Shown: positions 28,218 through 54,345, counted from the first letter of the stretch. The stretch: 64,000 bases of DNA from Dehalococcoidia bacterium (GCA_034429855.1 DAOUFT010000073.1:4961-68960), one strand, 5' to 3'. The notes: generated by a model from the letters alone, not told the origin. Numbers and translations: made by a program.

Positions 28218-28225
28218 ATTATTCT

Positions 28226-29599: not shown

Positions 29600-29608
29600 G
29601 TTTTTATC

Positions 29609-30409
29609 CTACGCAATCTTTAGCACTTCAGCAAGTACGCTTCTAACCTCAGCCGTGTCGTTTAAATAGTAGGCGGCGTTTGTTTGCTGACCGGCATTTC
29701 CGATTAGTACCGATACTCCGCCCGCATTATTGATAGTCCGGAACGCATCTTCATCTGTAAGGTCATCTCCAAAATATATGGACAGCGAGGATGCGCGCAC
29801 ATTTTTCGGCAGGAATTTGTCCAGTATCAGCTGTACCGCCTTACCTTTATCCCAAGGAACTGCCGGCCTTACCTCATGCACTTTTTTCCCTGATGAAGTT
29901 TTGATTTTCCCCCTTTTTTTGCCCAGATCAACGGTATTGTCAAAGATCGCTTTAACCTGAGGCAGTTGCTCTGAATCAACTTGTCGATAATGTACGCTCA
30001 GGCTCAGGCCTTTATCCTCCACAACTACTCCTCCTATGCTGGTCAGAGCCCTGGACAAAACACGGCTGACTACGAGCATGAAGGATCGAATTTCATCAGT
30101 TAGAGGATATATATACCGTATTCCCGGCCCCTCGATTTCCAGGCCGTGGTTTCCGGCTAAAATGACGTTGTCTATATCGACCATATTACGTAAATCCGCG
30201 ATTGCGCGGCCGCTGATAATGCCCACCGTCACGCCCTGCTTGCGAGCAAGCTTCTCCAGTAAGTTTTTAGTTTCGTGCGGCAATAGTGCCATCTCGGGCC
30301 GATCCACTATGGGTGTCAGTGTGCCGTCGTAATCGGACAATAACACCTTGCGTTTCGCGGCCTTCAAATTCTTCCAGATACCATTCCAATCGTTAAAAAG
30401 ATATTGCAT
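29609..30409 (-). CDS. otsB: Trehalose-6-phosphate phosphatase (HAD-IIB)
   Basis: LLSDYDGTLTPIV ... HAD motifs ... YFGDDLTDEDAF. Confidence 0.8.
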   Translation of the reverse strand: MQYLFNDWNGIWKNLKAAKRKVLLSDYDGTLTPIVDRPEMALLPHETKNLLEKLARKQGVTVGIISGRAIADLRNMVDIDNVILAGNHGLEIEGPGIRYIYPLTDEIRSFMLVVSRVLSRALTSIGGVVVEDKGLSLSVHYRQVDSEQLPQVKAIFDNTVDLGKKRGKIKTSSGKKVHEVRPAVPWDKGKAVQLILDKFLPKNVRASSLSIYFGDDLTDEDAFRTINNAGGVSVLIGNAGQQTNAAYYLNDTAEVRSVLAEVLKIA

Positions 30410-30424
30410 TTATCCTGATGCTAT

Positions 30425-33989: not shown

Positions 33990-34574
33990 TTAAACCAACC
34001 CTTTTTTCAGCGTGCTCAGGACTGCATTAAATCGTGCCTTGGGATCGAAGCTGTAATTACTCAGAGTCCATACATTGGATATACCCTGCATTATACTGAA
34101 CGTTAGAAAAGCTGTTGCATCTATATCTATATCTTTGCGCAGATTGCCCTGATTGACCTCTTGCTGAAGTACAGCTTTTAGATGCTCCACATATTTTTGT
34201 ATGGTGTCATATATTCGCCTGTTTAATTTTCGGTCACCCAGGCTGATGATTTCCGCGATTACCTGGAAGGATATGCCGCGCCGCATCTCGATGGATGATA
34301 GATGGCGCTGCAGGATAGTTTCAAGCACATCGCCATCCTGGCCGCCCGTAACGGTTAAATCGGCGATCAAGCTTTTCTCAATGTTCTCAACAAGTAAATG
34401 CAATATGTCCTTTTTGCTCTTAAAATGCCTGTAGATAGCTGCCTCGGTGAATCCGACTTCCTCAGCAATCCGCCTGACCGTCACATTCTCGCTGCCTACC
34501 TCGATAACCAGCTTGCGCGCTGCATTGACTATTTGCTCTTTTCTGGGGATCTTATTGGTAGCGATGCTGTTCAT
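33990..34574 (-). CDS. TetR/AcrR family transcriptional regulator
   Basis: KEQIVNAARKLVIEVGSENVTVRRIAEEVGFTEAAIYRHFKSKKDIL. It is a paralog of the 31934 TetR (shared IISLGD, LSS and VWTLS motifs). Confidence 0.75.
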   Translation of the reverse strand: MNSIATNKIPRKEQIVNAARKLVIEVGSENVTVRRIAEEVGFTEAAIYRHFKSKKDILHLLVENIEKSLIADLTVTGGQDGDVLETILQRHLSSIEMRRGISFQVIAEIISLGDRKLNRRIYDTIQKYVEHLKAVLQQEVNQGNLRKDIDIDATAFLTFSIMQGISNVWTLSNYSFDPKARFNAVLSTLKKGLV

Positions 34575-34872
34575 TTATACTTATCCCCGTATTAGATTCC
34601 GAACCGTTATGAATGTTGATTACGGCTATTATATATTTTTTTTAGGTTAGTTAACAGCGGTTGCAGTGTGTAATAACAAGAGAATGGAGACAAGCATGCC
34701 GCCTGTAGCCATCCGCAAGGTCGTAGCTTTAGAATCGAGGCCGTAGAATCGGTCATGACAAGCGGCTCCAGATACGCCGGGGCGCAGCAAACAATGTCTT
34801 TACGGATAATGGTATACAAATTAGTGGATAGGTTTCCGATTACAAGGTCGTGGATTTGGACTCTACCTGACG

Positions 34873-35148
34873 CTAAGCCCTTATCTTCAACTTGTATCTG
34901 GGAGTACCCTTCTCAATGTAGAAAAGAAATTTTACCTTTTCGCCTGCCTCAAGATGTCTTTCAGACTCCTCACGAAGTTGTTTGAAATCCATTTCCTTCA
35001 ATAATAAGGTTAGCAGTTCCAGCTTTCGTTTAAGTCTCTCGTTTTCGGACTCACCCGACAATAGCCGACCAAGCGTATCCGCATATTCTTTCTTGGTGAC
35101 CGTGTGGATACAATGAGAGAGACTCGGCTCCAGCTCTATCTTTAACAT
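34873..35148 (-). CDS. Small hypothetical protein (91 aa), paralogous to the C-terminus of the 37177-37548 product
   Basis: C-terminal block LELLTLLLKEMDFKQLREESERHLEAGEKVKFLFYIEKGTPRYKLKI aligns with LLSLLESPDLERLRGEAERLLSEGKQVKVRIDYGEGDPRFELI. Confidence 0.4.
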   Translation of the reverse strand: MLKIELEPSLSHCIHTVTKKEYADTLGRLLSGESENERLKRKLELLTLLLKEMDFKQLREESERHLEAGEKVKFLFYIEKGTPRYKLKIRA

Positions 35149-35174
35149 AACAGCGACGGATTCATGTTACTATA

Positions 35175-36005
35175 TTACTTTAATGTAATCCTGGAACCGG
35201 CGTTATTCAAGAAAAATATGCCTGGAAATTCCTGCGCCAGCCGTGCCGAGGCAGCGAAACCTGTGCAGTGGGATACACCCAGTTTCTTGATCCCCATTTC
35301 GTTAAGTTCTGCTATAGTCCTTTCAATCCGTTCCTCGTTGGCAAAGATAAGATGGGTGCCTCCGATTACAGCGTATACATTGTCTTTGCCGGTTATTCTC
35401 TGTGCCTGGCGTAGCGTATTGATCATTCCACGATGGGCACAGCCGAGTATCACTACCAATCCGAAGTCAGCATTGACAACCAATGAAAGGTCATCGGCAA
35501 GAGCGTCGGGCGACATGCCGTCAGGATCCTTAACGAAAAGGTTCCCGTCGATATTTTCATAATCGGTGACCATCTGGATTTCTCCGGTTGTGGTTATATG
35601 CTCGCTGATGGATACGGGTTCGCGGCTGATTTTAAAACGCGCGCCGCACTTCTCCAGCTCTTCTCTGGAAAAGGGTGCAGCGATGGAGATATAGTTCTCC
35701 GGACCGAAGCCGACGTGTTTGGCAGACCAGAGGTCGGGATGGCAGATAACTTCGGCACCCCCGCATTTGGTTAAAACCTCGTGCAGTCCACCTGTATGAT
35801 CCGCATGCCCGTGACTTAATACGATGGTATCGATAGTTGTCATATCGATGCCCAGCCGTTGGGCGTTATATGCAGTGGATAGACCTCCTCCCGCATCCAT
35901 AAGCACCTTTCTCCCATCAGCCTCTACCAGTATGCTCAGCCCCCATTCACCGAGAAAACCAAAACCGGCGGTATTCTCGCTCAGGGTGGTAATCTGGACT
36001 TCCAT
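35175..36005 (-). CDS. MBL-fold metallo-hydrolase family protein
   Basis: VLMDAGGG ... IDTIVLSHGHADHTGGL ... a further His and Asp. Length is 276 aa. Confidence 0.7.
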   Translation of the reverse strand: MEVQITTLSENTAGFGFLGEWGLSILVEADGRKVLMDAGGGLSTAYNAQRLGIDMTTIDTIVLSHGHADHTGGLHEVLTKCGGAEVICHPDLWSAKHVGFGPENYISIAAPFSREELEKCGARFKISREPVSISEHITTTGEIQMVTDYENIDGNLFVKDPDGMSPDALADDLSLVVNADFGLVVILGCAHRGMINTLRQAQRITGKDNVYAVIGGTHLIFANEERIERTIAELNEMGIKKLGVSHCTGFAASARLAQEFPGIFFLNNAGSRITLK

Positions 36006-36048
36006 TGTTACCTCCTCACTGCGTTGTTAATGCATTAATCTCAGGTTA

Positions 36049-37056
36049 TCACTGTTGCCTGCGTTCTAAGGGTGGAGAGACAAGATAATCGCCTATTTGA
36101 TCGATAAGGCTGGACTGGTATTGTTCTATGTGCCCGGCATCGCATAAGGCAGCCAGATCGGGGTCAACCGGTATTTTCCCAAGGAGCGGCGCTTTTGCCT
36201 CTGCCGCCATTTCTTCTCCCCTGCTTTTACCGAAAAGCTCAATATCCTTGTCTATCTGCTTGACGTGTAGATAGCTCATATTTTCGACCACACCGAGTAT
36301 TTTCTTATTCATCTGCCCGGCCATTTTCACGGCCTTCCTAACGATCATGGCTGTCAAATCCTGCGGTGTGAAGACAATTATCACACCCGTAATCGGCAGG
36401 GACTGCATAACGGTAAGAGGTGCATCTGCAGTGCCGGGCGGCAGGTCAACAATCAAATAGTCCAGATTGCCCCATACGACTTCCTCCCAGAATTGAGTTA
36501 TGGCCTTGCCTATCAGGGGACCTCGCCATATGACGGCATCATCCTCATTCGGCAATAGCAGATTGATCGACATGATTTCTATGCCGGACTTTGAAGTTAC
36601 CGGTAATATGCCGCTCTCGCTTCCGCCGGGACGGTCGGTTATGCCGAACATCTTCGGTATGCTGGCGCCGGTAATATCGGCATCGAGTATACCGACTTCA
36701 AAACCCTTTCTTCTCAGTGCTACAGCTGTTATACCGCTGACCAGTGACTTGCCCACTCCGCCTTTACCGCTCATGACGGCTATGATATTGCCGATTTTAT
36801 TGAGATCAGTGGGTTTGGATTCTATATAATCTACGCTGATTTTCTTGACGTCGTACAAATCACTTAATGAATCCTTTATTTTATCCCTCGTCCAGGTTTG
36901 AGAGTATTCATCCAGCGCCGTCGAAGCCAGCGTGATTTTTACCGAGTTGTCAGTAACTATAATATCGCGCAGCAAATTCATTAATGTCAGGCTGCGAACA
37001 ACGTGAGGTATGAGGATTTCCTCAAGCCTGGATTTAACCTGTTCGGGTGAAGACAT
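36049..37056 (-). CDS. Mrp/NBP35 (ApbC) family iron-sulfur cluster carrier ATPase with an N-terminal DUF59/MIP18-like domain
   Basis: Deviant Walker A IAVMSGKGGVGKS; a CxxC-type cluster-ligand region. Length is 335 aa. Confidence 0.85.
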   Translation of the reverse strand: MSSPEQVKSRLEEILIPHVVRSLTLMNLLRDIIVTDNSVKITLASTALDEYSQTWTRDKIKDSLSDLYDVKKISVDYIESKPTDLNKIGNIIAVMSGKGGVGKSLVSGITAVALRRKGFEVGILDADITGASIPKMFGITDRPGGSESGILPVTSKSGIEIMSINLLLPNEDDAVIWRGPLIGKAITQFWEEVVWGNLDYLIVDLPPGTADAPLTVMQSLPITGVIIVFTPQDLTAMIVRKAVKMAGQMNKKILGVVENMSYLHVKQIDKDIELFGKSRGEEMAAEAKAPLLGKIPVDPDLAALCDAGHIEQYQSSLIDQIGDYLVSPPLERRQQ

Positions 37057-37176
37057 ATTGGGTACTCCTTCTTTAAAATCCTATAAAAGGTCGTATTAAT
37101 AAGGTTAATTCGATTCTAAAAACACTTTTTCAATTCAACCTTTCCATCAGGTTTACCCTGCGCTTTCTACATAATG

Positions 37177-37548
37177 TTACTCAGAAATCAATTCAAAGCG
37201 GGGGTCGCCCTCGCCATAGTCAATCCTGACCTTGACCTGTTTGCCTTCGGACAATAGCCGTTCCGCTTCGCCTCGCAACCTTTCGAGGTCGGGAGATTCC
37301 AGCAGCGACAGCAGCGCTTCATAACGCCTCTGCAGTTCTTCATCGCTTGATTGCTCGCTGAGCAAGGAGAAAAGGCAGTTGTCCAACTCTTTCTCCGCAA
37401 GGCATTTCAGGCATCTGCCCGGAACCTCGTTACATGTATAATCGGGCTGAAGGTTAATCCGTTCCATTGTAGTCATCGCCACCTGCTTAGTTTTACCGGT
37501 ATAGGCATTCTGAATTGTCGGCACCGGTATTATCGAATTGTACATCAT
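37177..37548 (-). CDS. Small hypothetical protein with an N-terminal 4-Cys motif (CNEVPGRCLKCLAEKELDNC) and a C-terminal domain paralogous to 34873-35148
   Basis: See the paralog alignment above. The true start may be an internal Met (MTTMERIN...). Confidence 0.4.
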   Translation of the reverse strand: MMYNSIIPVPTIQNAYTGKTKQVAMTTMERINLQPDYTCNEVPGRCLKCLAEKELDNCLFSLLSEQSSDEELQRRYEALLSLLESPDLERLRGEAERLLSEGKQVKVRIDYGEGDPRFELISE

Positions 37549-37613
37549 GCCTGGAAAGCAAACAAAAGGGCGGGGCCTTGATGCGAATCTTATTGCGATT
37601 GAATGCCTGATTA

Positions 37614-38393
37614 CTACCGGACATTTTTTTTGGCCTCCGGTCTGCGACGCTCTGTTTGCTGCTGATTGAGCGGTATGGTAGTCGGTTTAGAAGCATCGTA
37701 AACGGTTATGACGTGTTTGAACCCGGAGAAGCTCCTGCTTATTTGAGACAGCTCAAATGAATTTAATGGTTTGACCGGGCAAGATCTAAGCGGTGTGTTG
37801 ATCTGGATCTCATCCGGGAAAAAGGTCTTTGCCATTTCGGCCAGCCCAGGCCCTTTCTCTTGATTTATCTGCATGAACATTAACTGGATAGCCAGCTTTC
37901 CGTCGAATATGCTACGAAATGATCTGATTCCTTCAGCTAACCGTTTAACAGAAAGGTCGAATACTGGCCTGTTTATACCTGCTAAAAGGTCGTCGTCGGG
38001 CGCATCCAGCTTGGCAACAACCATGTCCGCGCCTGCCAGCGCCTCGCGTACGGACTGTTGATATAGTAGAGATGAATTCGTCAATACGGCGATAGGGATA
38101 TGCAATGAACGTCGGACCATAGCGATGGCCTGGTCGATATTGCTGGCAAGTGAAGGCTCGCCGACACCGGAGAACGTTGCATAATCGGCCTCTATCGGCG
38201 GCAGCGCATCAAGCTCATGCTCCAGGCTATCAAGCGAAACAAACTCCTGTCTGTCTGCTTGCCTATTCACCGTGCTTCCTAACTGGCAGTAGATGCAATC
38301 GAACGAGCAGGTTTTAGAGCGGGTCGAAACCATGTCTATACCGAGGGATCTCCCCAGACGCCAGGATGGAACAGGGCCGTATATAATAGACAT
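37614..38393 (-). CDS. Radical SAM protein of unknown function
   Basis: MSIIYGPVPSWRLGRSLGIDMVSTRSKTCSFDCIYCQLG (CxxxCxxC) ... FSGVGEPSL. ATG at 38393; the track ORF is extended 15 codons upstream. Confidence 0.7.
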   Translation of the reverse strand: MSIIYGPVPSWRLGRSLGIDMVSTRSKTCSFDCIYCQLGSTVNRQADRQEFVSLDSLEHELDALPPIEADYATFSGVGEPSLASNIDQAIAMVRRSLHIPIAVLTNSSLLYQQSVREALAGADMVVAKLDAPDDDLLAGINRPVFDLSVKRLAEGIRSFRSIFDGKLAIQLMFMQINQEKGPGLAEMAKTFFPDEIQINTPLRSCPVKPLNSFELSQISRSFSGFKHVITVYDASKPTTIPLNQQQTERRRPEAKKNVR

Positions 38394-38400
38394 GTTAACA

Positions 38401-38853
38401 TTACCACTGTTTCTTGTAACTTCGTTTCCACTTGTCAAGCTTGTATTCGTAATAGTCCCTGATTGCTTCCTTGAGCGTGTTGGATGCCAGCAGGGCGCAA
38501 TGCTCGCTTTCCTCAGGCAGCCCGTCTAACGCTTTTAGTACATCCTGCTGGCTTATCTGCATGGCTGCTTCTACCGGCTTGCCTTTGGCCATCTCAGTGA
38601 TCATGCTCCCCGCAGCTATGGTGGTTGTACAACCATCGGTCATAAAGGAGGCTTGTTCTATGATCTCGTTATCGATGCTTAACCAGATCTCCATTGTGTC
38701 TCCGCAGGGACCTGTGATGCGGGCGTAGCCGCTGGCTATATCTATGCTTGCCATGTTCCTTGGCCTTAAAGCATGTTCCACCGTCTTTTCGCTGCAAGTT
38801 TTGCGCAGCTCCGATTCCAGCATCTGCTGATACTCTTTTCTGGTAACGCGCAT
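38401..38853 (-). CDS. IscU/NifU N-terminal-domain-like Fe-S cluster scaffold protein
   Basis: The three conserved scaffold cysteines are present in GPCGDTMEIWL, DGCTTTIAAGS and EHCALLASNTLKEAI. Confidence 0.75.
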   Translation of the reverse strand: MRVTRKEYQQMLESELRKTCSEKTVEHALRPRNMASIDIASGYARITGPCGDTMEIWLSIDNEIIEQASFMTDGCTTTIAAGSMITEMAKGKPVEAAMQISQQDVLKALDGLPEESEHCALLASNTLKEAIRDYYEYKLDKWKRSYKKQW

Positions 38854-38894
38854 GGCATGATCTCCGATCAGAGTTTATTACCGTCTTAGTAACC

Positions 38895-39233
38895 CTAGTG
38901 GTCGCAGCGGTTGTCACCGGTTACGAGGTTTCCGTTCAAATAATTGATAACCACCAGCTCAGGATCGTCTGCCGGCGCTCCCAGCACGACATCGATGTCA
39001 TTTTGTCTGAACAATGAAATTGCGTTGGCGCCCATCCCGCCGGCGATTACGACCTGCACGCCCTGCTTGGCCAACCATGGTGGTAACAAGCCCGGCTGGT
39101 GGGGAGGGGCGGCAACCATCTCTTTTTTGTGTATTTTTTTATTGTTTTCGTCGGCATCAATAAGGGCAAACTGCTCACAATGACCGAAATGCGCTGATAG
39201 TTTTCCCTGGCTTACTGGTATTGCATATTTCAT
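38895..39233 (-). CDS. NifX/NafY/NifB-C-terminal-like dinitrogenase FeMo-cofactor-binding family protein
   Basis: MKYAIPVSQGKLSAHFGHCEQFALIDAD ... GVQVVIAGGMGANAISLFRQNDIDVV. Length is 112 aa. Confidence 0.8.
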   Translation of the reverse strand: MKYAIPVSQGKLSAHFGHCEQFALIDADENNKKIHKKEMVAAPPHQPGLLPPWLAKQGVQVVIAGGMGANAISLFRQNDIDVVLGAPADDPELVVINYLNGNLVTGDNRCDH

Positions 39234-39271
39234 GATAAGCTCCTTGATTTAGTAATTTGATCATCCGGTTG

Positions 39272-39511
39272 TTATCTGTGACACTGTCCTTCTGAGGAAC
39301 AGGGAGGTTGATCACAGCGTTCTGCTCGTCCGCAGCATGTTTGCCCTCCCTGTCGTCTGTTCGTGTTTTTGATGAGTCCCGGCACAGAGATTAATTTACT
39401 GACTGAACTGCTGCCGCAACTCGGGCATTTCACCATCGCATGGCCTGCCATTTCGTGATTATGTTCGAAGCGGTGCCCGCAATCGGTGCAGGCGTAATCG
39501 TAGATAGGCAT
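39272..39511 (-). CDS. FmdB-family zinc-ribbon protein
   Basis: MPIYDYACTDCGHRFE ... VKCPSCGSS, then a Cys-rich tail. ATG at 39511 with AGGAG 7 nt upstream. Confidence 0.7.
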   Translation of the reverse strand: MPIYDYACTDCGHRFEHNHEMAGHAMVKCPSCGSSSVSKLISVPGLIKNTNRRQGGQTCCGRAERCDQPPCSSEGQCHR

Positions 39512-39527
39512 AACGTTCTCCTGATAA

Positions 39528-40391
39528 TTAGTTAAGCGATATTTTGTCTTCAATATTCTTCCACAGGTTTATGATTTCACCGGCTGCCGGTCCGTCGTTA
39601 TATTCCACCAGGGGGACTCCATTTGCCACCGCCCGGTTCACAGACGTGTCGAAGGGGATTTTCCCCGCCACATAGACACCGATATTCGAGCAGAATTCTT
39701 CTATTTGTAAAGACTTTTTCCTGTTGATGTCGAATTTATTGATACATACTGCGGCGGGCACCTTGAAATGGCGGCAGACCTGGATCACTCGCTCCAAATC
39801 GTGCGCGCCCGATACCGTCGGCTCGGTGACCAGCAGCGCAAGATCGGCGCCGGAAAGCGATGAGATTACCGGGCAACCTATGCCGGGGGGCCCGTCCGTA
39901 ATGATGGTGGTAAATCCCTTATCCGCGGCTATTTTCCTGGCCTGCTGCCTTACCAGCGCAACCAGTTTGCCGGAGTTCTCCTGTGCAATGCCCAGACGGG
40001 CGCGGACCAGGAAACCGTATTTTGTATCGGAGATGTACCAGTGTCCGGCCATATTATCAGTCATGGTAATGGCATCAACCGGGCAGATACGCGAGCAAAA
40101 CCCGCATCCTTCGCAGGCAAAACGGCTGACCTTGAAATTGTGAATGGCATCGAAACGGCATAGATCCTGACACAGGCCGCATTCGGTGCAAGCATTTTCA
40201 TCAATGCGGGCAATCTGGCCGCTCCAGAACTTCTCAATATGTTTGGCGGTGGGGTGCAGAAGCAGGTGTAGAGCGGCGGCGTCCACGTCACAATCCGCCA
40301 TCACTTTATTGCGCGCCAGGGCAGCAAAACAGCCGGCGATAGATGTTTTACCGGTACCTCCTTTGCCGCTAAGCACAACGAGTTCTTTCAT
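39528..40391 (-). CDS. MinD/ParA-superfamily P-loop ATPase with an inserted 2x[4Fe-4S] ferredoxin domain
   Basis: Walker A VLSGKGGTGKTS. Ferredoxin motifs CTECGLCQDLC ... CEGCGFCSRICP. ATG at 40391 with AGAGGA upstream. Confidence 0.8.
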   Translation of the reverse strand: MKELVVLSGKGGTGKTSIAGCFAALARNKVMADCDVDAAALHLLLHPTAKHIEKFWSGQIARIDENACTECGLCQDLCRFDAIHNFKVSRFACEGCGFCSRICPVDAITMTDNMAGHWYISDTKYGFLVRARLGIAQENSGKLVALVRQQARKIAADKGFTTIITDGPPGIGCPVISSLSGADLALLVTEPTVSGAHDLERVIQVCRHFKVPAAVCINKFDINRKKSLQIEEFCSNIGVYVAGKIPFDTSVNRAVANGVPLVEYNDGPAAGEIINLWKNIEDKISLN

Positions 40392-41229
40392 GCGATATCC
40401 TCTTGATTTCATCGTAAACACTGACGAATGCGCCCTGCCACTGCGGCTTGCCTTCAGCCAGCGTGATTCCTTCGGAGTATATGCTGGCGATACTCATGTC
40501 CAGCGGTATTTTCAGCAATACCGGAATGCCCTCTTTTATGCAGTATTCATCTATAGACATTTCACCTTCAACGGCGCGGTTAATAATCACTCCACAGGGG
40601 ACATCCAGCTGCCTCACTGTTTCTACCGCCAGTTTAAGGTCATGCAGACCGAAGGGAGTTGGCTCCGTGACCAGCACGCAGTAGTCGCTTTTATCTATAG
40701 CCTCGACCACTGGACAGGATGTGCCGGGCGATACATCAAGTATGGCAAGCACGTCGCGTTTGATCTTGGTTTTCACCCGGCGGATAACAGGAACAGCCAT
40801 TGCCTCACCGACTGTTAGACGTCCCTGCACAAAATCGATGTCATCCGCGTTTCCCGACTCTACCACACCCATCTGTCTGTCCTCCTCCAAGATCGCTCCT
40901 TCGGGACATAGATAAGCGCAGGCGCCGCAACCGTGACATAACTGATCGAAGACGAGCACACCCCGTGGTACCACGGCAATTGCCCTGTAGGCGCACACCT
41001 CGGCACACAGGCCGCAATATGTGCACCTGGCGAAGTCCACCTTCGGCACAGGTATGCAAACCGGTTCACTGGCTGTGATGGTCGGTTTAAGGAACAAGTG
41101 ATCATTGGGCTCCTCGACATCGCAGTCAAGCACCTGAACCTTTTCCCTGCCCCTCAGAGATACGGCCAGGCTGGTGGCCACCAGTGTTTTTCCGGTCCCA
41201 CCTTTGCCGCTGGCTATAGAAATGATCAT
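40369..41229 (-). CDS. MinD/ParA-superfamily P-loop ATPase with an inserted 2x[4Fe-4S] ferredoxin domain (paralog)
   Basis: Walker A IASGKGGTGKTL. CTYCGLCAEVC ... CHGCGACAYLCP. Confidence 0.8.
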   Translation of the reverse strand: MIISIASGKGGTGKTLVATSLAVSLRGREKVQVLDCDVEEPNDHLFLKPTITASEPVCIPVPKVDFARCTYCGLCAEVCAYRAIAVVPRGVLVFDQLCHGCGACAYLCPEGAILEEDRQMGVVESGNADDIDFVQGRLTVGEAMAVPVIRRVKTKIKRDVLAILDVSPGTSCPVVEAIDKSDYCVLVTEPTPFGLHDLKLAVETVRQLDVPCGVIINRAVEGEMSIDEYCIKEGIPVLLKIPLDMSIASIYSEGITLAEGKPQWQGAFVSVYDEIKRISHERTRCA

Positions 41230-41445
41230 TCAGGCTCTTACCATCTTTGTAGAGCATTTCGGGCAGCTGATGCTGTAGCAGGGTTTACCAACCTGGTGTG
41301 GAACCCTGGCGCCGCAATTAGGGCAAACGCACTCGCCGCCGGGTCCTGCACCGGGACGGTTTCCCCCCATCCTGCCGCCTCTGCCACCACCCATTCCTCT
41401 ACCGGCTCCACCCTGTGGCGGTCCGGTCATATCTCCTCTTGGCAT
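41230..41445 (-). CDS. Small Gly-rich protein with a DUF5320-like N-terminus (MPRGDMTGP...) and a C-terminal 4-Cys zinc ribbon
   Basis: MPRGDMTGPPQGGAGRGMGGGRGG ... CVCPNCG ... CPKC. It abuts the ATPase gene. Confidence 0.5.
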   Translation of the reverse strand: MPRGDMTGPPQGGAGRGMGGGRGGRMGGNRPGAGPGGECVCPNCGARVPHQVGKPCYSISCPKCSTKMVRA

Positions 41446-41501
41446 TTGGATTACCTCCTTATTTCATAGATATTTTTGTTTGTATTCTGGTATTGCCGCT
41501 A

Positions 41502-41864
41502 TCAACCCGATTGGCCGTGATGAGGCTGTACACTGGGCTTACTGATGGTCTTGTATTTACCGGCTTTGAAGGTATTTATCACGTCTTTGACTTTCCCTGA
41601 AACGCCTGTGTAGACCTCTATGCCGGCGGCCGCAAGTACCTGAAAGGCATTAGGCCCGCAATCGCCCGTCAATACAACTTTGGCGCCGTGCTTGACTACC
41701 GTTTGGCCGGCAGCTATGCCGGCCCCGCCTGCGGATGCATTGTTGGCAACCGCTACGAAATTCATGGTATCCGGGTCGACAAAAATGAAATAATTGCATC
41801 TGCCGAAGCGCGGATCGACATCGGCATCTAGATCTGGTCCGGCGGCGGTAATCGCCAGTTTCAT
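41502..41864 (-). CDS. NifX/NafY-like dinitrogenase FeMo-cofactor-binding family protein (second copy)
   Basis: MKLAITAAGPDLDADVDPRFGRCNYFIFVD ... GAKVVLTGDCGPNAFQVLAAAGIEVY. Confidence 0.8.
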   Translation of the reverse strand: MKLAITAAGPDLDADVDPRFGRCNYFIFVDPDTMNFVAVANNASAGGAGIAAGQTVVKHGAKVVLTGDCGPNAFQVLAAAGIEVYTGVSGKVKDVINTFKAGKYKTISKPSVQPHHGQSG

Positions 41865-41921
41865 ACTTATCCTCCTTTCACTATTTATATTGCCTATATT
41901 GCCTGTCCGGCTACACGCGAA

Positions 41922-42182
41922 TTAGCGTTTCTCCATTTGACTGATTCTTGCCTCCAGATTCTCAAGCTCATTCAATAACTGGTTAATATCGTTTCTGAGC
42001 TGTAAGATGTCCTGCTGGTCGTAGGGAGCCTGGTAAATCGGCCCATAAGCCGATCCGTAGCTGCGATAGCCAAACCTGCGACCGTAAGCGCCGATATTGC
42101 CTGACGGCGCTACGCAAAAGCCTCTTGCTCCACCTGTCATAGGACCAAGACCCCGTGGCCCGGTTCCATCAAACCCTGGCAT
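41922..42182 (-). CDS. DUF5320-type Gly-rich protein with a C-terminal coiled coil
   Basis: MPGFDGTGPRGLGPMTGGARGFC ... LRNDINQLLNELENLEARISQMEKR. Confidence 0.55.
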   Translation of the reverse strand: MPGFDGTGPRGLGPMTGGARGFCVAPSGNIGAYGRRFGYRSYGSAYGPIYQAPYDQQDILQLRNDINQLLNELENLEARISQMEKR

Positions 42183-42244
42183 TTTAATACCTCCGTTTGT
42201 TCATTTATTCAAGTGATCGAGATAAGCGATAAAAATTCCGCCGT

Positions 42245-42511
42245 TTAAGACCTTTCCCGCTCCATCTCGCTGACCGCTGCCTGCATTCGTGACAACCTGT
42301 CTTTCAACACGTCTATTGTTTTTTTCAGGTCGCTCAGATCATAAGCTGCGGCAGCGGGAGCTGTACCCTCATAACCCGGCATGTAATATGACGGGTTATC
42401 GAAGTAATACCCGCACCTGGGGAGACCTCCGCGGCCGCGACCTATATACGGCCACGCAGCATATGCTCCCCTGAACCCGCCACCCATCCTGTAGCCTCTT
42501 CCATATGGCAT
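42245..42511 (-). CDS. DUF5320-type Gly/Arg/Tyr-rich protein with a C-terminal coiled coil (paralog)
   Basis: MPYGRGYRMGGGFRG ... LSDLKKTIDVLKDRLSRMQAAVSEMERER. Confidence 0.5.
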   Translation of the reverse strand: MPYGRGYRMGGGFRGAYAAWPYIGRGRGGLPRCGYYFDNPSYYMPGYEGTAPAAAAYDLSDLKKTIDVLKDRLSRMQAAVSEMERERS

Positions 42512-42553
42512 TGTTCACCTCCTTTTGTATTGGAGTTTACGTTGATCGACCTA

Positions 42554-43057
42554 TCAACGGTTGCGTCCTCCTCGATGGCACCTGCCGCCCCTGCCGCGGC
42601 TCCAGCTCATATCAATTGCCGGCACGGGTGGTGGTGTAGCAGTATTACATACGGGGCAGTATTGCAGAGGACTTTTAGTGGACTGTTCAAGCGGAACCTC
42701 CCACTGGTGTCCGTGTGCACAGATATAACGCTGCGGCAGCACTTCGAAATCCCCGCCCTCGATTCTGATCGCTTTGCCGTTCAGCAATGCATCGGCGATC
42801 TTTGTGCGCGCGGATTCCAGCACACGTTGAAATGTCGAGCGGGAAACGTTCATTCGTTCCGCCGATTGCTCCTGATCGAGGTCCTCCATATCTTTGAGGC
42901 GCACGGACTCCAGCTCCTCGAAGGATAGACATACTTCATCTAAAAAGCGCAGCGGCACGCCGGCCGGTTTGTAATAATTCACACCTGGCATGAATGCAAC
43001 CCTGCGGCATTTCCTCGGTCTCGGCATAAATGTCTCACGCAGTTTTATTATGGGCAT
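42554..43057 (-). CDS. DUF134 (UPF0251) predicted DNA-binding protein with a C-terminal Cys/His zinc-ribbon extension
   Basis: MPRPRKCRRV ... GVNYYKP ... FEELESVRLKDMEDLDQEQSAERMNVSRSTFQRVLESARTKIADALLNGKAIRIEGG, then HGHQWEVP ... CPVCN. The start may be the ATG at 43027. Confidence 0.7.
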   Translation of the reverse strand: MPIIKLRETFMPRPRKCRRVAFMPGVNYYKPAGVPLRFLDEVCLSFEELESVRLKDMEDLDQEQSAERMNVSRSTFQRVLESARTKIADALLNGKAIRIEGGDFEVLPQRYICAHGHQWEVPLEQSTKSPLQYCPVCNTATPPPVPAIDMSWSRGRGGRCHRGGRNR

Positions 43058-43067
43058 ATGCCCATAA
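43048..43067. promoter_or_regulatory. 20-bp perfect palindrome TTATGGGCATATGCCCATAA at the DUF134 gene start; candidate operator for the whole downstream cluster
   Basis: Perfect inverted repeat that overlaps or immediately precedes the first gene of the minus-strand cluster. Confidence 0.45.
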
Positions 43068-43188
43068 ATAGTATAAGGTGCATTGGATATCCGGTCAAGT
43101 GAGATATTAGAGCCGGTCTATGCGGCACCGGTTCACGATTGACCATGACCGATAAAGGGCTTAAAATTTAAATCGGGAGGCCGAGAAT

Positions 43189-43395
43189 ATGAAGAGAAAT
43201 GAAGGTACATTGGATCGTATAATAAGGGTAATAGTCGGAATTAATTTGATCGGTCTGGCGATGTATTTTTTGGGATCTTGGGCTTTGTGGTTGGTCATTG
43301 TGGTCGGCATACTGGGGCTGATCGCTTTGATCACGGGCATAACCGGCTATTGCGGTTTATACACCCTGTTTAAATTCTCTACTATCAAAAAATAG
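43189..43395 (+). CDS. DUF2892 (YgaP-like) small inner-membrane protein
   Basis: Two TM helices and the conserved TGYCGLY motif. RBS GGGAGG upstream. Confidence 0.6.
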   Translation: MKRNEGTLDRIIRVIVGINLIGLAMYFLGSWALWLVIVVGILGLIALITGITGYCGLYTLFKFSTIKK

Positions 43396-43463
43396 CTGTT
43401 CGGGCCGGGGCTGTTTGCTACATGAGATAATTCTCTATCCTGATGATAACGCAGTATTAATGA

Positions 43464-44636
43464 TTATCTGACCGCCGATTCGTAGATTATCGCAGTGATA
43501 TCCACTACTTGTAGTTCGTCTTCCATGTTTTCTGCCTTTATAGCATCGGAGAACATTACCATGCAACCGGGACAAGCCACTGCCAGCTTGGAAGCTCCGG
43601 TCTGTCTGGCTTCACGCAACCTGGCCCGCGCAGGGCTGTCCTTTCCGCCTGCCAGGTAGTCGGTCACAAAATTACCACTGCCGCCGCCGCAGCAAAAGGC
43701 ATCCGCTCGGTTTCTGTCCATCTCAATGAGATCCATGCCGTCGATGCCCTGCAGTGCTTTGCGTGGTGCGTCATATACCTGATTGTGACGACCCAGATAG
43801 CAGGGGTCGTGGTAGGTGATTTTCGCTTTAGTACCCTTCAGCTTGATCCGATTGTCTCTCAGCAGGCTGTCAAGTACATGCGTGTAATGGTAAACTTCGA
43901 ATGGATAGCCCAGTCCCTGGTACTGGTTTTTCATGATATTGTATCCATGCGGGCAGAGTGTAATGACTTTTTTTATATCCAGTTCCTTAAATTTATCGAC
44001 ATTCTTTTTCGCCAGTATATTGAACAGATCGGTTTCTCCCAGGGAATATACCTCGTTTCCACAGCATTCTTCATCCTTTCCCAGTATGCCGAACGATAGG
44101 CCTGCCATTTGCAGCAGGGTCGCCAGGTTCCGGGCCGTTTTCTGTCCATTTTCATCATAGGAGCCCAGACAGCCGACATACAGGAGGAAATCATCTCCTC
44201 TTGCATAGGTTTTAATTCTATTGGCCCAGGCGCCCCTGTCTTCACGCAGGTTTTTTAACGGATTTCCATAGGTATATACTGATTCAAGAAAGCGCTTGAC
44301 CCGGGTGGGAATTTTACCCTGATCTACCATATCGCTCCTGGCGCCGATGATCCATTCAACGATGTCCGGGGCAAACTTCATGGGGCACTGTTGACTGCAG
44401 TTCATGCAGGTGGTACACGTATAGAGAATCTCTGCCAGGTGCTCCGACCAGGGCAGTTCCCCTTTAAGCCATGCGTTAGTCAGCCATAATCTGCCGCCAG
44501 TTGAATAGGTATCGAATTTAAATCTGTTGTAGGATGGGCAATTAATGGCTGAATAGTCCGTGGGAAATTTGCAGTAACCGCACCTGAAGCATCTGTGTAT
44601 CTGAGACTGGTATTTCTTCATCGGGCCACCTCCCAA
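43464..44636 (-). CDS. GlcF/HdrD-like (Fe-S)-binding subunit with CCG domains
   Basis: CFRCGYCKF ... CPSY and CTTCMNCSQQCP, two CCG-type Cys-rich domains (CCGNE ... CCGGGSG). It overlaps the upstream GlcD-like gene by 19 nt. Confidence 0.75.
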   Translation of the reverse strand: MGGGPMKKYQSQIHRCFRCGYCKFPTDYSAINCPSYNRFKFDTYSTGGRLWLTNAWLKGELPWSEHLAEILYTCTTCMNCSQQCPMKFAPDIVEWIIGARSDMVDQGKIPTRVKRFLESVYTYGNPLKNLREDRGAWANRIKTYARGDDFLLYVGCLGSYDENGQKTARNLATLLQMAGLSFGILGKDEECCGNEVYSLGETDLFNILAKKNVDKFKELDIKKVITLCPHGYNIMKNQYQGLGYPFEVYHYTHVLDSLLRDNRIKLKGTKAKITYHDPCYLGRHNQVYDAPRKALQGIDGMDLIEMDRNRADAFCCGGGSGNFVTDYLAGGKDSPARARLREARQTGASKLAVACPGCMVMFSDAIKAENMEDELQVVDITAIIYESAVR

Positions 44637-52405: not shown

Positions 52406-52417
52406 AAAAGATCAGAT

Positions 52418-52735: not shown

Positions 52736-52748
52736 TAATCTCCTCCAA

Positions 52749-52901: not shown

Positions 52902-52917
52902 TGGCCTATCCTCCATG

Positions 52918-54336: not shown

Positions 54337-54345
54337 TCAGTTTGC

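Follow-up and report, generated by a model that had tools for sequence, protein, structure and literature searches.

The orange protein system and its relatives

At its core, the locus analyzed here matches the orange protein (ORP) system, which is specific to anaerobes. In Desulfovibrio vulgaris the genes of this system are arranged as orp3-4-5, orpR and orp7-8-9, and its biochemistry has been published (PMC6345978, PMC8359166). A Mo-Cu-S cluster is carried by ORP itself; both [4Fe-4S] and [3Fe-4S] clusters are bound by MrpORP, which passes cluster on to Orp3-Orp4-Orp8; and OrpR is an Fe-S redox sensor (PMC6345978, PMC8359166). Orp3 co-purifies with Orp4 and Orp8 and is the in vitro recipient of cluster from MrpORP; the published phenotype is morphological, has been read as one of cell division, and is accompanied by a polar location of MrpORP. 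In A. fulgidus, homology to the orp cluster of Desulfovibrio has been noted for AF2378-AF2383, and AF2379, the namesake of a family considered below, is flanked by AF2378 and AF2380, both of which are tied to that cluster (PMC3949148).

An extended, split-gene ORP locus

The locus lies within a 64,000-nt stretch of DNA from a Dehalococcoidia bacterium (GCA_034429855.1 DAOUFT010000073.1:4961-68960; hereafter the window), where fifteen co-directional ORFs fill positions 34873-43057 (−) with gaps of 0-62 nt, the exceptions being gaps of 143 and 120 nt that flank one small gene. This ORF map agrees with a preliminary description of fifteen co-directional, tightly packed genes, and the 15-gene locus is a single operon. 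The protein families named in that description were mostly recovered by Pfam and NCBIfam profile searches, and these assignments support its view of the locus as a metallocluster-type parts list. Probable true starts give shorter genes for the DUF134 protein (43027), MinDF2 (40391), FmdB (39511), the radical SAM enzyme (38393) and AF_2379a (37476).

Judged by family membership and gene order, the locus appears to be an extended, split-gene form of the ORP system. Its core consists of an Orp3/Orp4-type ATPase pair, an ORP-type NifX and both halves of MrpORP as separate genes; around this core are small Cys-rich and Gly/Arg-rich proteins, and added to it are an IscU-type scaffold, a radical SAM enzyme, an MBL-fold protein and two AF_2379 proteins. 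The locus had been proposed as a genuinely undescribed system, which does not hold for a core that is the ORP system of D. vulgaris. Likewise, the statement that no function had been assigned overlooks the published biochemistry and is fair only for the physiological role, since the ORP authors themselves call that role ‘still unclear’. Our favored reading, to which we give better than even credence, is that this extended ORP operon stores, buffers and delivers metal-sulfide clusters by the mechanism proposed below.

The curated NCBIfam MrpORP model matches two genes here, which indicates that MrpORP is split in two. Model positions 1-233 match (308 bits) an Mrp/NBP35-type P-loop ATPase with a DUF59-like N-terminus (36049..37056, −; Pfam ParA/NUBPL 294 bits), and positions 265-365 match (129 bits) a second NifX-like protein (38895..39233, −; Pfam Nitro_FeMo-Co 73.6 bits), a stand-alone equivalent of the MrpORP Di-Nase domain with the published motifs of that domain, HFGHCE, PPHxPG and CDH at the C-terminus (PMC6345978). 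The Mrp family assignment (ParA 294 bits) stands, but the earlier call of an Mrp/NBP35 cluster carrier is weakened because the family CxxC motif is missing: ENMSYLHVKQIDK occupies the place of the ENMSGxxCPHCGK found in relatives. This loss is common to all Mrp homologues of 56-67% identity, and a canonical bridging cluster should not be bindable by the Mrp protein encoded here.

ORP-type NifX and the DUF5320 proteins

Both NifX-like calls were upheld by Pfam Nitro_FeMo-Co matches (79.8 and 73.6 bits), the higher score belonging to NifX1 (41502..41864, −), an ORP-type protein equivalent to Orp8 but lacking a tail. Its top PDB match is D. gigas ORP (2WFB, E=3e-20), followed by MTH1175 (E=6e-17), and it is found in 66 of 80 related loci. 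Cys23 is conserved in 79% of NifX1 homologues, whereas D. gigas ORP has Ala at this position.

Three DUF5320 proteins had been listed, and two can be retained: DUF5320b (41922..42182, −; Pfam DUF5320 50.7 bits), whose Cys23 is invariant in 30 homologues, and DUF5320-like a (42245..42511, −), which scores below threshold (18.3 bits) and has a Gly/Arg/aromatic-rich N-terminal half (Gly 24%, aromatic 22%, pI 9.5) followed by a C-terminal coiled coil homologous to DUF5320b (hhalign 98.8%). The third, a 71-aa protein (41230..41445, −), has only its N-terminal MPrGDGTGP/Gly-Arg segment in common with DUF5320 (hhalign probability 92%). After this segment comes a CxCxxC...H...C....CxxC module whose 6 Cys and 1 His are invariant in 24 homologues; some of its 479 database homologues carry a DUF5320 label in public annotation. 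The protein occurs in 44 of the 80 loci, always directly upstream of MinDF1, and is a possible equivalent of Orp5/Dde_3197.

Of the 66 loci with NifX1, 44 also encode a DUF5320 module, which in 22 related loci is fused to the ORP-type NifX domain (Pfam confirmed the fusion in 8 of 8 tested). Gly/Arg-rich regions are also able to bind nucleic acids.

Accessory genes and an unlikely role in molybdenum or tungsten handling

The earlier IscU-like call was confirmed by a Pfam NifU_N match (98.6 bits) and by Cys50, Cys75, His118 and Cys119, which are invariant in 34 homologues; this Fe-S scaffold paralogue (38401..38853, −) scores 120 bits against TIGR03419, below its 188-bit cut-off, and occurs in 32 of 80 loci. 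The FmdB-family zinc ribbon (39272..39511, −; Pfam Zn_ribbon_8 60.9 bits, TIGR02605), present in 36 of 80, bears an additional Cys-rich tail (TCCGR..C..PPC..C), and each of its nine Cys is 84-100% conserved in 31 homologues. On JGI contigs the FmdB gene is uncalled.

The genes for the radical SAM enzyme (18/80 loci), the MBL-fold protein (24/80) and AF_2379 proteins (7/80) are accessory rather than core. The first (37614..38393, −; Pfam Radical_SAM) encodes a small single-cluster enzyme of an uncharacterized COG0731-like family with a CX3CX2C motif invariant among homologues; an experimentally based name is attached to none of its 5944 homologues, its AF2 model (pLDDT 93) is equally alike to many radical SAM families (TM ~0.6), and a homologue picked independently lies in a locus of similar make-up. 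The MBL-fold protein (35175..36005, −; Pfam Lactamase_B) has HxHxDH, GCAH and HCTG motifs that are conserved in 25 homologues, and the deposited names of its top PDB matches (2P4Z, 3H3E, 7DCK) state no function. Two genes left nameless in the preliminary description are assigned by precomputed Pfam PF27306 matches to the AF_2379 family, and are paralogues (hhalign 99.1%): AF_2379a (37177..37476, −) has a CxxC...C motif and an AF2 model (pLDDT 86.5) with a beta-alpha3-beta2 fold for which comparison with the PDB gave no match, and AF_2379b (34873..35148, −) is without the CxxC.

An alternative reading is that the locus handles thiomolybdate or thiotungstate (and copper), so that sulfidic cells would sequester or process Mo/W-S species, either as detoxification or to feed Mo/W cofactor synthesis, with the radical SAM enzyme and the COG1237-type MBL protein acting on a pterin or nucleotide. 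The only natively characterized ORP, that of D. gigas to which NifX1 is most similar, holds [S2MoS2CuS2MoS2]3−; the A. fulgidus cluster is thiosulfate-induced and adjoins a putative thiosulfate reductase operon. It may also, as has been suggested (PMC3949148), help to produce the molybdopterin oxidoreductases of that genome. The weak best NCBIfam matches of the radical SAM enzyme are a tungsten-cofactor oxidoreductase maturase and MoaA, at E=7e-10 to 6e-8 and far below the cut-offs. We nevertheless consider this reading unlikely: Mo/W transporters and moa/moe/mog genes are neither recurrent in the 80 loci nor next to this one, there is no Moco riboswitch, and most NifX1 homologues differ from D. 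gigas ORP at Cys23. In addition, IscU, Mrp and the ferredoxin inserts point to Fe-S chemistry, as do the clusters that have been reported in Orp5-like and Di-Nase proteins, [2Fe-2S] and [3Fe-4S].

A pair of ATPases with ferredoxin inserts

The two MinD-type deviant-Walker-A ATPases of Orp3/4 type, MinDF1 (40369..41229, −; Pfam CbiA, ParA, Fer4) and MinDF2 (39528..40391, −; Pfam matches and a 2x[4Fe-4S] insert), each contain GKGGTGKT plus two CxxCxxCxxxC motifs that form a 2x[4Fe-4S] ferredoxin insert, in agreement with the published description of Orp3 and Orp4. The start of MinDF2 overlaps the end of MinDF1; their genes lie side by side in 78 of 80 loci, and 33 of the best 150 representatives have the two ATPases fused into one protein of ~600 aa. 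The MinDF1 family comprises 819 clusters at E<=1e-30, and across 81 sequences its eight ferredoxin Cys, Cys36 and switch-II Cys172 (PGTSCPV) are invariant. Profile-to-single-sequence alignment placed switch-II Cys183 of MinDF2 opposite NifH Cys132 (95.5%); the corresponding alignment of MinDF1 failed (2.9%), so that a good alignment exists for MinDF2 only.

The ATPase core, whose closest solved structure is archaeal MinD (1G3Q) and whose NCBIfam match is minD_arch, also invites the hypothesis of the original ORP papers, in which the ATPases of a MinD/ParA-type positioning or cell-division system would determine the site of the septum or of a polar structure, with the metalloproteins serving only to make these ATPases redox-sensitive. 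ParA-type ATPases position large cargo, which could include storage particles. The morphological defects that follow orpR inactivation, the polar MrpORP and the MinD-like C-terminal amphipathic helices reported for Orp3/4 are all in keeping with such a role. Yet min, fts and other division genes are not recurrent in the 80 loci; the sole neighbor with an FtsX domain looks like an ABC permease, because it also has a MacB-like periplasmic core domain. What invariably accompanies the ATPases are genes for NifX-like proteins, Cys-rich proteins and Fe-S scaffolds, together with metal or redox regulators. Their ferredoxin inserts and switch-II Cys are invariant, and the ORP authors themselves leave the physiological role as ‘still unclear’. 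We consider a positioning function very doubtful.

Distribution and neighboring genes

Gene order is conserved in 80 loci of other genomes, and since the same order is found again so often the arrangement is far beyond chance. These loci come from bacteria (Chloroflexota, Ignavibacteria, Omnitrophota, Planctomycetes, Desulfobacterota) and from Bathyarchaeia, Methanocellaceae and Altiarchaeota, in line with the earlier statement that neighborhoods of this composition recur in anaerobes. Their recurrent neighbors are metal-related (DUF364, ArsP_2, CooT, a CsoR-like regulator and CGGC).

The locus had been placed between a sirohaem/Ahb operon and dsr genes, which is true only loosely: the haem/Ahb genes occupy 2.6-12.5 kb of the window and dsrAB occupies 54.5-56.8 kb, separated from the locus by unrelated genes. 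Toward dsr these encode CCG/FAD oxidoreductases and, in divergent orientation, a small membrane protein. A functional link to the dsr or sirohaem genes is not borne out: the surroundings of the 80 related loci contain no conserved client enzyme. Independence from nitrogenase is supported, in that profile searches found no nif structural genes among the ORFs scanned in the window, in agreement with the stated absence of nifHDK, nifB and nifEN.

CooT is a nickel chaperone for CODH, and one related locus contains CooT with an additional CbiA/ParA-type ATPase. This locus, the dsrAB genes 11.5 kb upstream in the window, the nif-like parts (NifX-like carriers, NifU_N scaffold, radical SAM enzyme and NifH-class ATPases) and the Cys at the NifH Cys132 position would suit a pathway, along the lines of the preliminary description, that serves solely to mature a single complex metalloenzyme whose gene lies elsewhere in the genome (for example DsrAB, a hydrogenase, CODH or a nitrogenase-like enzyme), comparable to NifH/NifB/NifX/NifU in FeMo-co assembly. 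We regard this as quite improbable: the 80 loci, from organisms with very different enzyme sets, lack a conserved candidate client, unrelated genes separate the present locus from dsr, and the genes for radical SAM, MBL and AF_2379 proteins are accessory to the core.

Control at the head of the operon

The first gene encodes a 157-aa DUF134 (UPF0251) HTH regulator (42554..43027, −; Pfam DUF134 86.5 bits), whose start is the same as that called on JGI contigs. Besides the Pfam match, it has weak matches to sigma-70 region-4-like HTH domains, a C-terminal Cys/His motif in which Cys113, Cys134 and Cys137 are 95% conserved (21 locus-linked homologues), and an RG-rich tail, SRGRGGRCHRGGRNR, with a pI of 12. 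Upstream is a putative sigma-70-like promoter, TTGACC-17-TATACT (43070..43098, −), called by its consensus match (10/12 positions), which is the top promoter-like match on the minus strand of 34300-43500; this region has no sigma-54 −24/−12 element.

The −10 box and the start codon flank a 20-bp perfect palindrome, TTATGGGCATATGCCCATAA (43048..43067), the predicted DUF134 operator, which is present as a single copy in the window with <=3 mismatches allowed (chance expectation 0). A conserved palindrome, TATGAGCATATGCTCATA, precedes DUF134 genes, and the related motif TATGRRCATATGYYCATA has 35 copies in 1.19 Mb of related loci versus ~3 in shuffles, 17 of the 35 falling in front of DUF134 genes from several phyla, at a distance of 9-73 nt. 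The regulator at the head position varies with lineage: a Fur-family protein is the alternative in 17 loci, and a PAS sigma-54 activator of OrpR type heads 9 related deltaproteobacterial loci.

Proposed mechanism of the extended ORP operon

If the operon stores, buffers and delivers metal-sulfide clusters, its NifX-like domains and cationic Gly/Arg (DUF5320) segments, the latter in trans here and in cis (fused) elsewhere, would hold anionic inorganic metal-sulfide species non-covalently. Consistent with metal-sulfide handling are the NifX-DUF5320 fusions, the IssA-like composition of the DUF5320 N-terminal halves, the Fur-family proteins or OrpR as alternative head regulators, and the metal-related neighbors. 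The two ATPases are predicted to form a heterodimer whose ferredoxin inserts and switch-II cysteines would lie at the NifH cluster site; we propose that this heterodimer links the binding and hydrolysis of ATP to electron transfer, or else to the loading and release of clusters. The IscU-like scaffold and the Mrp-like ATPase, which lacks CxxC and probably has the separate Di-Nase protein as its partner, may pass Fe-S units in or out. DUF134 would bind the promoter palindrome and keep the operon repressed until its Cys motif and RG tail sense a redox or metal-sulfide signal. The net role would thus be cluster storage, buffering and delivery under reducing, sulfidic conditions, and not maturation of one neighboring enzyme.

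Comparison with known systems

Several features add to what has been described for the ORP system: the DUF5320-NifX fusion, the lineage-dependent head regulator, the palindrome before DUF134 genes, an Mrp without CxxC, AF_2379 membership, the fused ATPases and the correspondence of a switch-II Cys with NifH Cys132. DUF134 here occupies the slot held by OrpR in deltaproteobacteria and by Fur in other phyla. The proposed mode of holding clusters would resemble that of ORP with its Mo-Cu-S cluster, which in D. gigas is not an Fe-S cluster, and that of IssA with thioferrate. The fused NifX-DUF5320 proteins have a cationic, IssA-like Gly/Arg tail, and this window supplies DUF5320 in trans. The likeness is compositional only, the DUF5320 N-terminal halves having Gly 24-25%, aromatic residues 16-22% and a pI of ~9.5, next to Gly 21%, aromatic residues 20% and a pI of 10.7 in the published IssA tail.

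Gene content and surroundings of the locus

The interval 34873-43057 of the window is filled by 15 minus-strand ORFs in an operon-like organisation, with intergenic gaps of 0-62 nt except for the 143 and 120 nt that flank one small gene. The closest named homologues of several of the encoded proteins are from Dehalococcoidia MAGs (79-82% identity), so that the window probably derives from a member of that class with dsr genes. Functional statements about the locus are computational throughout. Pfam and NCBIfam searches bore out the families assigned in a preliminary description of this DNA: a DUF134 protein, two Nitro_FeMo-Co (NifX-like) proteins, two CbiA/ParA ATPases that each carry a deviant Walker A and two CxxCxxCxxxC motifs, an FmdB zinc ribbon, a NifU_N scaffold, a radical SAM protein, an Mrp/NUBPL-type ATPase and an MBL-fold protein. 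Two further genes, left without a name there, encode paralogues (hhalign, 99.1%) that belong to a recent Pfam family, PF27306 or 'AF_2379'. Three DUF5320 proteins had also been proposed; two proteins of this type are present, of which DUF5320b (50.7 bits) lies above and DUF5320a (18.3 bits) under the PF17253 gathering score of 27 bits, but the third is a 71-aa protein (41230-41445) that shares with DUF5320 only its N-terminal MPrGDGTGP/Gly-Arg segment by hhalign and continues as an invariant 6-Cys/1-His module. The gene for this 71-aa protein has no match in a local Pfam copy, and some of its homologues bear a precomputed PF17253 label.

The locus had been placed between an Ahb operon and the dsr genes, and both groups are in the window (haem/Ahb genes at 2.6-12.5 kb; dsrAB, dsrN-like and dsrMK-like genes at 49.9-56.8 kb), but neither adjoins the locus. 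The second group (49878-56813, minus strand) consists of dsrA, dsrB and genes for a DsrN-like amidase and DsrM-like and DsrK-like proteins, and a scan of the ORFs after the DsrK-like gene for dsrJOP found none. Elsewhere in the window, genes for LarB-like (AIR carboxylase domain) and LarC-like (nickel insertion protein, 443 bits) proteins, with one gene between them (20553-23493, plus strand), look like a nickel-pincer cofactor biosynthesis set, and a 1098-aa polypeptide with biotin carboxylase, biotin carrier and carboxyltransferase domains (23498-26794, minus strand) is of the fused acyl-CoA/pyruvate carboxylase type. Trehalose genes at 26970-31915 (minus strand), encoding an OtsA-like GT20 protein, a trehalose phosphatase, a TreT-like synthase and an MscS-channel/DUF5752 fusion, suggest an osmoprotection module adjoining a Na+/H+ exchanger and two TetR regulators. 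The interval 57031-61541 encodes a glycyl radical enzyme of PFL-like type (889 aa) and, near it, a radical SAM protein (60447-61541) that is probably its activase. A gathering-threshold Rfam scan of the entire window returned no riboswitch or other RNA, and a search for intrinsic terminators gave no convincing one within or after the operon.

The core of the locus is related to the ORP system

Several matches relate this locus to the ORP system. The NCBIfam MrpORP model NF041136 matches, under its cut-off in both cases, the Mrp gene (positions 1-233, 308 bits) and the gene for the second NifX-like protein, NifX2 (38895-39233; positions 265-365, 129 bits), in which the three motifs known from the Di-Nase domain (HFGHCE, PPHxPG and, C-terminally, CDH) are present. 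The best PDB match of the first NifX-like protein, NifX1 (41502-41864), is the Desulfovibrio gigas ORP (2WFB; E=3e-20, residues 2-105). In the published complex, Orp3 and Orp4 are paralogues with two [4Fe-4S] ferredoxin motifs each, Orp5 is related to a small [2Fe-2S] protein, Orp8 is ORP, which holds a non-covalent Mo-Cu-S cluster, and Orp9 is MrpORP, in which a P-loop domain is fused to a NifX-like 'Di-Nase' domain (PMC6345978, PMC8359166). Orp4 and Orp8 co-purify with Orp3, MrpORP gives clusters to Orp3 in vitro, and the orp genes form two divergent σ54 operons under OrpR, a redox-sensing Fe-S activator (PMC6345978, PMC8359166). The model and structure matches, the Di-Nase motifs and the published description of the complex together identify the core of the locus as an ORP system, and there is little doubt that this is an ORP-type locus. 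It follows that the claim of an undescribed system does not hold for this core; biochemistry of the Desulfovibrio ORP system has been published (PMC6345978, PMC8359166). The 71-aa protein, with six invariant Cys and one His and encoded directly upstream of the ATPases, is a candidate equivalent of Orp5/Dde_3197; its homologues are mostly Chloroflexota and metagenome proteins, with no Desulfovibrio homologue among those retrieved.

Conservation across bacteria and archaea

A scan at one genome per species gave at least 592 relatives of ATPase1, the first MinD-type ATPase with a ferredoxin insert, and the 15 window proteins were mapped onto all stop-to-stop ORFs of the 80 best loci by blastp best hits. 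These loci come from Dehalococcoidia and other Chloroflexota (60-67% identity), Acidobacteriota, Ignavibacteria, Zixibacteria, Omnitrophota, Planctomycetes, Desulfobacterota, Bacillota, Methanocellaceae, Bathyarchaeia, Altiarchaeota and Methanophagales; the synteny is deep and crosses domains, in a sample that consists mostly of MAG contigs and is biased to close relatives of the query. Co-occurrence of the gene set across genomes, a point raised in the preliminary description, was confirmed in that the gene order is kept in the 80 best loci: regulator, DUF5320, NifX1, 71-aa protein, ATPase1, ATPase2 and FmdB, then (AF_2379), NifX2, Mrp, IscU, (radical SAM), (MBL) and (AF_2379), with accessory genes in brackets. 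Because many contigs are incomplete, gene frequencies among these 80 loci are lower bounds: at least 78 for ATPase2, 66 for NifX1, 51 for NifX2, 47 for Mrp, 44 for the 71-aa protein, 36 for FmdB, 35 for DUF5320, 32 for IscU, 24 each for DUF134 and MBL, 18 for radical SAM, and for AF_2379 at least 7 (123-aa type) and 3 (91-aa type). Near-complete copies of all 15 genes occur in Chloroflexota (loci L010, L012, L007, L011, L016 and L018). The FmdB gene (39272-39511), which encodes a Cys-rich tail and is kept in 36 of the 80 best loci, goes uncalled on JGI contigs from the same organism (L085, gap at 2121-2416).

The neighbourhoods of the 80 best loci share no recurrent candidate for a client enzyme. 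What does recur in them are Fur-family regulators, SAM methyltransferases, DUF364/DUF4213 and ARMT1-like proteins, pyridine-nucleotide disulfide oxidoreductases, ArsP_2 exporters, CGGC-domain proteins and an ABC transporter. A radical SAM homologue picked independently (57% identity) also comes from a locus of this type, which additionally encodes CooT, a further ParA-type ATPase, a methyltransferase and a ferredoxin. On one JGI contig (3300028162, locus L089, 6152-7161), a Chloroflexota-type ORP locus includes an extra 263-aa CbiA/ParA ATPase, after which come CooT, a methyltransferase and a CsoR-like regulator. CooT belongs to the CODH nickel chaperone family, and this gene content hints at nickel handling in some variants of ORP-type loci.

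A probable obligate ATPase pair with a putative NifH-like cysteine

ATPase1 and ATPase2 appear to form an obligate pair. Their genes, which overlap in the window, are adjacent in 78 of the 80 best loci, and both proteins contain GKGGTGKT and two CxxCxxCxxxC motifs, invariant in 78-81 homologues. Among 819 representative clusters of the ATPase family (E<=1e-30), 33 of the best 150 are tandem fusions of ~600 aa with two Walker A motifs, mostly four ferredoxin motifs and, in most, D..PG..C in both halves; entries P0317-P0365 of the representative library are ~600-aa fusions with two Walker A motifs, four ferredoxin motifs and one switch-II Cys per half. Such ATPase1-ATPase2 fusions in other lineages, along with the conserved adjacency, indirectly support a putative complex of the Orp3-Orp4-Orp8(-Orp5-Orp9) type.

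The switch-II Cys is invariant in both proteins (Cys172 in ATPase1, Cys183 in ATPase2). In a profile alignment (probability 95.5%) with Azotobacter vinelandii NifH, for which a sequence identical to PDB chains at 289/290 positions was used, the switch-II Cys of the ATPase2 family coincides with NifH Cys132, which helps to bind the [4Fe-4S] cluster of that protein, and the ferredoxin insert falls at the NifH Cys97 loop. Global hhalign alignment of ATPase1 with NifH failed (probability 2.9%), leaving ATPase2 as the only usable alignment, so the NifH-like cysteine is a lead rather than proof. An obligate ATPase pair with such a cysteine suggests ATP-gated redox or cluster chemistry.

DUF5320 as a tail of the NifX-like domain

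The small Gly- and Arg-rich proteins of the locus can be placed by domain fusion. In 22 of the 80 best loci the NifX1 homologue runs on into a (GMGRG)n stretch and then a coiled coil, and this fused tail is DUF5320 by Pfam in all eight cases tested, six of them above threshold. DUF5320 therefore seems to be a tail that can be detached from the ORP-type NifX domain; 44 of the 66 NifX1-containing loci among the 80 best have the module, either on the same polypeptide or in its own gene. NifX1 of the window has a 20-aa tail only, with two DUF5320 genes just upstream, the products of which have N-terminal halves that are 24-25% Gly and 16-22% aromatic with a pI of about 9.5, a make-up that agrees with the one published for the C-terminal tail of Pyrococcus furiosus IssA. 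Similar RG-rich segments are also found in the 71-aa protein and the DUF134 regulator. The globular domain of NifX1 (Pfam Nitro_FeMo-Co, 79.8 bits; IPR003731, as in IssA) has as its second-best solved relative MTH1175 (E=6e-17), which belongs to the IssA clade but has no tail, and the NifX-DUF5320 fusions may represent the uncharacterised 'IssX' clade.

Cluster carriers and accessory proteins

The proposal of an Mrp/NBP35 cluster carrier is weakened by one missing motif. Like Nbp35-Cfd1, ApbC and Ind1, the Mrp protein has a deviant Walker A (SGKGGVGKS), a Walker B (DLPPGT) and an ENMS motif, and it matches Pfam ParA/NUBPL (294 bits) and ApbC (205 bits), but it lacks the CxxC that ligates the bridging [4Fe-4S] cluster in those carriers. 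At the CxxC position it has ENMSYLHVKQIDK, and one poorly conserved Cys is left in the protein. This loss is common to all 56-67% identical Mrp homologues (Chloroflexota-type), and 33 more distant homologues in ORP-type loci retain CP[HYKNE]C; this Mrp sub-type has thus lost the canonical bridging [4Fe-4S] site. The P-loop protein of the locus carries a DUF59-like N-terminal part, and its Di-Nase counterpart is encoded by a gene of its own. A CxxC-less Mrp sub-type was not found in the literature searched.

The IscU-like scaffold appears to be a divergent paralogue, since it scores under both cut-offs (TIGR03419, 120 bits against 188; IscU, 75 bits against 192) and retains a GPCGD motif and Cys50, Cys75, His118 and Cys119, which are invariant in 34 homologues. 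No cysteine desulfurase gene is among the 15 genes of the operon. The model of the radical SAM protein (pLDDT 93) has a TM score of ~0.6 to viperin, DesII, TYW1, LipA, RlmN, PFL activase and NifB about equally, and NCBIfam, PDB sequence and fold searches for its family returned generic radical SAM similarity only; the public label 'wyosine synthetase' was rejected as an automatic COG0731-type name. A fold search of the PDB with the AF_2379 model (pLDDT 86.5) gave no match, and the deposited names of the closest solved relatives of the MBL protein give no function.

Interchangeable regulators and a predicted DUF134 operator

The regulator slot of these loci is filled interchangeably by proteins of metal or redox type. 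Among the 80 best loci it contains DUF134 (24 loci and the window), a Fur-family protein (17) or an OrpR-like PAS σ54 activator (9, all deltaproteobacterial loci of Desulfobacterota), and the OrpR-like activator never shares a locus with either of the others. A σ54 -24/-12 element was sought upstream of the locus in the window without a match; DUF134 is the head gene there and has a σ70-like promoter. Between the best promoter of this kind and the DUF134 start codon lies a perfect 20-bp palindrome, TTATGGGCATATGCCCATAA, that is unique in the window. The motif TATGRRCATATGYYCATA, with two or fewer mismatches, occurs at 35 sites in 1.19 Mb of related loci, compared with a mean of ~3 in shuffles. 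Of these sites, 17 are 9-73 nt upstream of DUF134 genes in Chloroflexota, Ignavibacteria, Zixibacteria and Desulfobacterales, and others precede NifX1 or ATPase genes in Dethiobacter, Methanophagales and Altiarchaeota loci. The palindrome is thus predicted to be a conserved DUF134 operator with the consensus TATGAGCATATGCTCATA, and its overlap with both the promoter and the probable start of transcription makes autorepression the most probable mode of control.

DUF134 proteins linked to these loci share a C-terminal Cys...CPxC motif (95% conserved). In one Dehalococcoidia locus (L010), two DUF134 genes (4977-5453 and 8790-9692) are each preceded by their own copy of the palindromic motif. Divergent from the operon promoter region of the window, a gene for a small YgaP-like transmembrane (DUF2892-type) protein (43189-43395, plus strand) has its own promoter-like site at 43139-43167. 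A search for papers on the function of DUF134/UPF0251 found none, and neither a DUF134 operator nor the three-way swap of regulators was found in the literature searched; a predicted operator and autoregulatory role provide a handle on this family.

Possible functions

Set against its rivals, the storage and trafficking of metal-sulfide clusters is the role that we favour, with modest confidence, and the explanation as a whole is judged reasonably probable. The NifX-like domains and cationic tails would bind anionic metal-sulfide species non-covalently. Through its ferredoxin domains, and possibly through an interface site like that of NifH, the ATPase heterodimer would link ATP either with the transfer of electrons or with the loading and release of clusters. 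The IscU-like and Mrp-like proteins could swap Fe-S units with this metal-sulfide pool, and DUF134 would repress the operon until a redox or metal-sulfide signal is received.

Handling of thiomolybdate or tungstate with copper, which the Mo-Cu cluster of D. gigas and the weak MoaA-like and W-maturase-like matches of the radical SAM protein would suggest, is regarded as improbable in loci with no Mo or W genes and no riboswitch. More doubtful again, and to the same degree as each other, are two further proposals. The first is MinD-like positioning or a part in cell division; investigators of ORP call its physiological role 'unclear' and favour such a link, and there is a published phenotype and a polar MrpORP, but the loci contain no division genes and their metallocluster context is invariant. 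The second is a maturase dedicated to one enzyme, such as DsrAB or CODH, which has a parallel in nif assembly and one locus with CooT in its favour but no conserved client gene. A functional tie to the flanking dsr and Ahb genes was rejected because it is not conserved in other loci, chance clustering because the synteny spans 80 loci, and a nif accessory set because nifHDK, nifB and nifEN are, as the preliminary description stated, absent from the large ORFs scanned across the 64-kb window.

A bolder form of the storage and trafficking role, which is unlikely as it stands, is that ORP-type loci are a widespread, anaerobe-specific, desulfurase-free and regulator-switched machine to store and mobilise inorganic iron-sulfur. 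By analogy with IssA, metal-sulfide polymers, thioferrate-like or otherwise anionic, would nucleate on the NifX-like domains and DUF5320 Gly/Arg tails, and a NifH-like heterodimeric ATPase with built-in ferredoxins would load and unload them reductively and possibly also position them in the cell. IscU/Mrp-type carriers would then be fed without a cysteine desulfurase, the swappable metal or redox regulators DUF134, Fur and OrpR would act as the switch, and DUF134 would be a new family of metal-sulfide- or redox-sensing repressors. If true, this would add another way in which Fe-S is supplied where the habitat is sulfidic.

The NifX-like proteins and MinD-ferredoxin ATPases of non-diazotrophic anaerobes have been unexplained since the structural-genomics era, when the structures of TM1290, TM1816 and MTH1175 were solved and functions were lacking, and 15 years of study have not settled the role of the ORP complex. 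Domain fusion joins ORP-type proteins to IssA-like cationic tails, and so two separate literatures, and predicts a metal-sulfide cargo; neither this ORP-DUF5320-IssA link nor tandem-fused ATPases with a NifH-like cysteine were found in the literature searched. If correct, this reading bears on the storage and distribution of Fe-S clusters in strict anaerobes, including Chloroflexota that carry dsr genes.

Comparison with known systems

Like nitrogenase FeMo-co assembly, the locus combines NifX-like carrier domains, a NifU_N scaffold and a radical SAM enzyme, and like NifH its ATPases are of the SIMIBI class; their Walker A is deviant, and their switch-II Cys lines up with NifH Cys132. It differs in the lack of nifHDK, nifB and nifEN in the window, in a radical SAM protein that resembles NifB in the common core only (TM 0.58, 16% identity), and in ATPases that have entire ferredoxin domains instead of one bridging cluster, with a core nearer MinD.

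The Pyrococcus furiosus protein IssA, as presented in the available part of its description (PMC5524996), is an iron-sulfur storage protein that forms thioferrate nanoparticles. Shared with it are the IPR003731/NifX-like globular domain and a cationic, Gly-rich, aromatic-containing unstructured segment, where the DUF5320 match is compositional only; as in the IssA tail, which has a single Cys, DUF5320b has one invariant Cys (available part of PMC5524996). Unlike IssA, the locus places this tail in trans, on separate small proteins that also bear a coiled coil, and fusion to NifX on one polypeptide is found in related loci only, not in the window. Dedicated MinD-ferredoxin ATPases, Mrp and IscU are not described alongside IssA in the same part of that source.

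In Archaeoglobus fulgidus, AF2378-AF2383 are cited as homologous to the Desulfovibrio orp genes (PMC3949148) and, by published description, include a similar set: the NifX-like AF2378; AF2379, after which the family of the two small AF_2379 proteins of the locus is named; and the CbiA/MinD-like AF2380 and AF2383. The evidence on these genes is expression data only, according to which they are highly expressed constitutively and induced with thiosulfate.

The closest relationship is to the Desulfovibrio ORP system, with which the locus shares an adjacent pair of MinD-type ATPases with two [4Fe-4S] ferredoxin motifs each, an ORP-type NifX-like protein, an Mrp/NBP35 P-loop module, a Di-Nase module, small Cys-rich proteins and confinement to anaerobes. 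NifX1 has a Cys at the position of an Ala in D. gigas ORP. The locus misses two defining ORP features, the MrpORP fusion with its CxxC and control by OrpR and σ54. MrpORP is split here into two genes in reversed order with three genes between them, and its P-loop part lacks the CxxC and has an added DUF59-like N-terminus; in place of two divergent operons with OrpR and a σ54 promoter there is one 15-gene operon with DUF134, a σ70-like promoter and a predicted palindromic operator. To the ORP system the locus adds six or seven gene families, among them the IscU-like, radical SAM, MBL and FmdB proteins, two AF_2379 proteins and two DUF5320 proteins.
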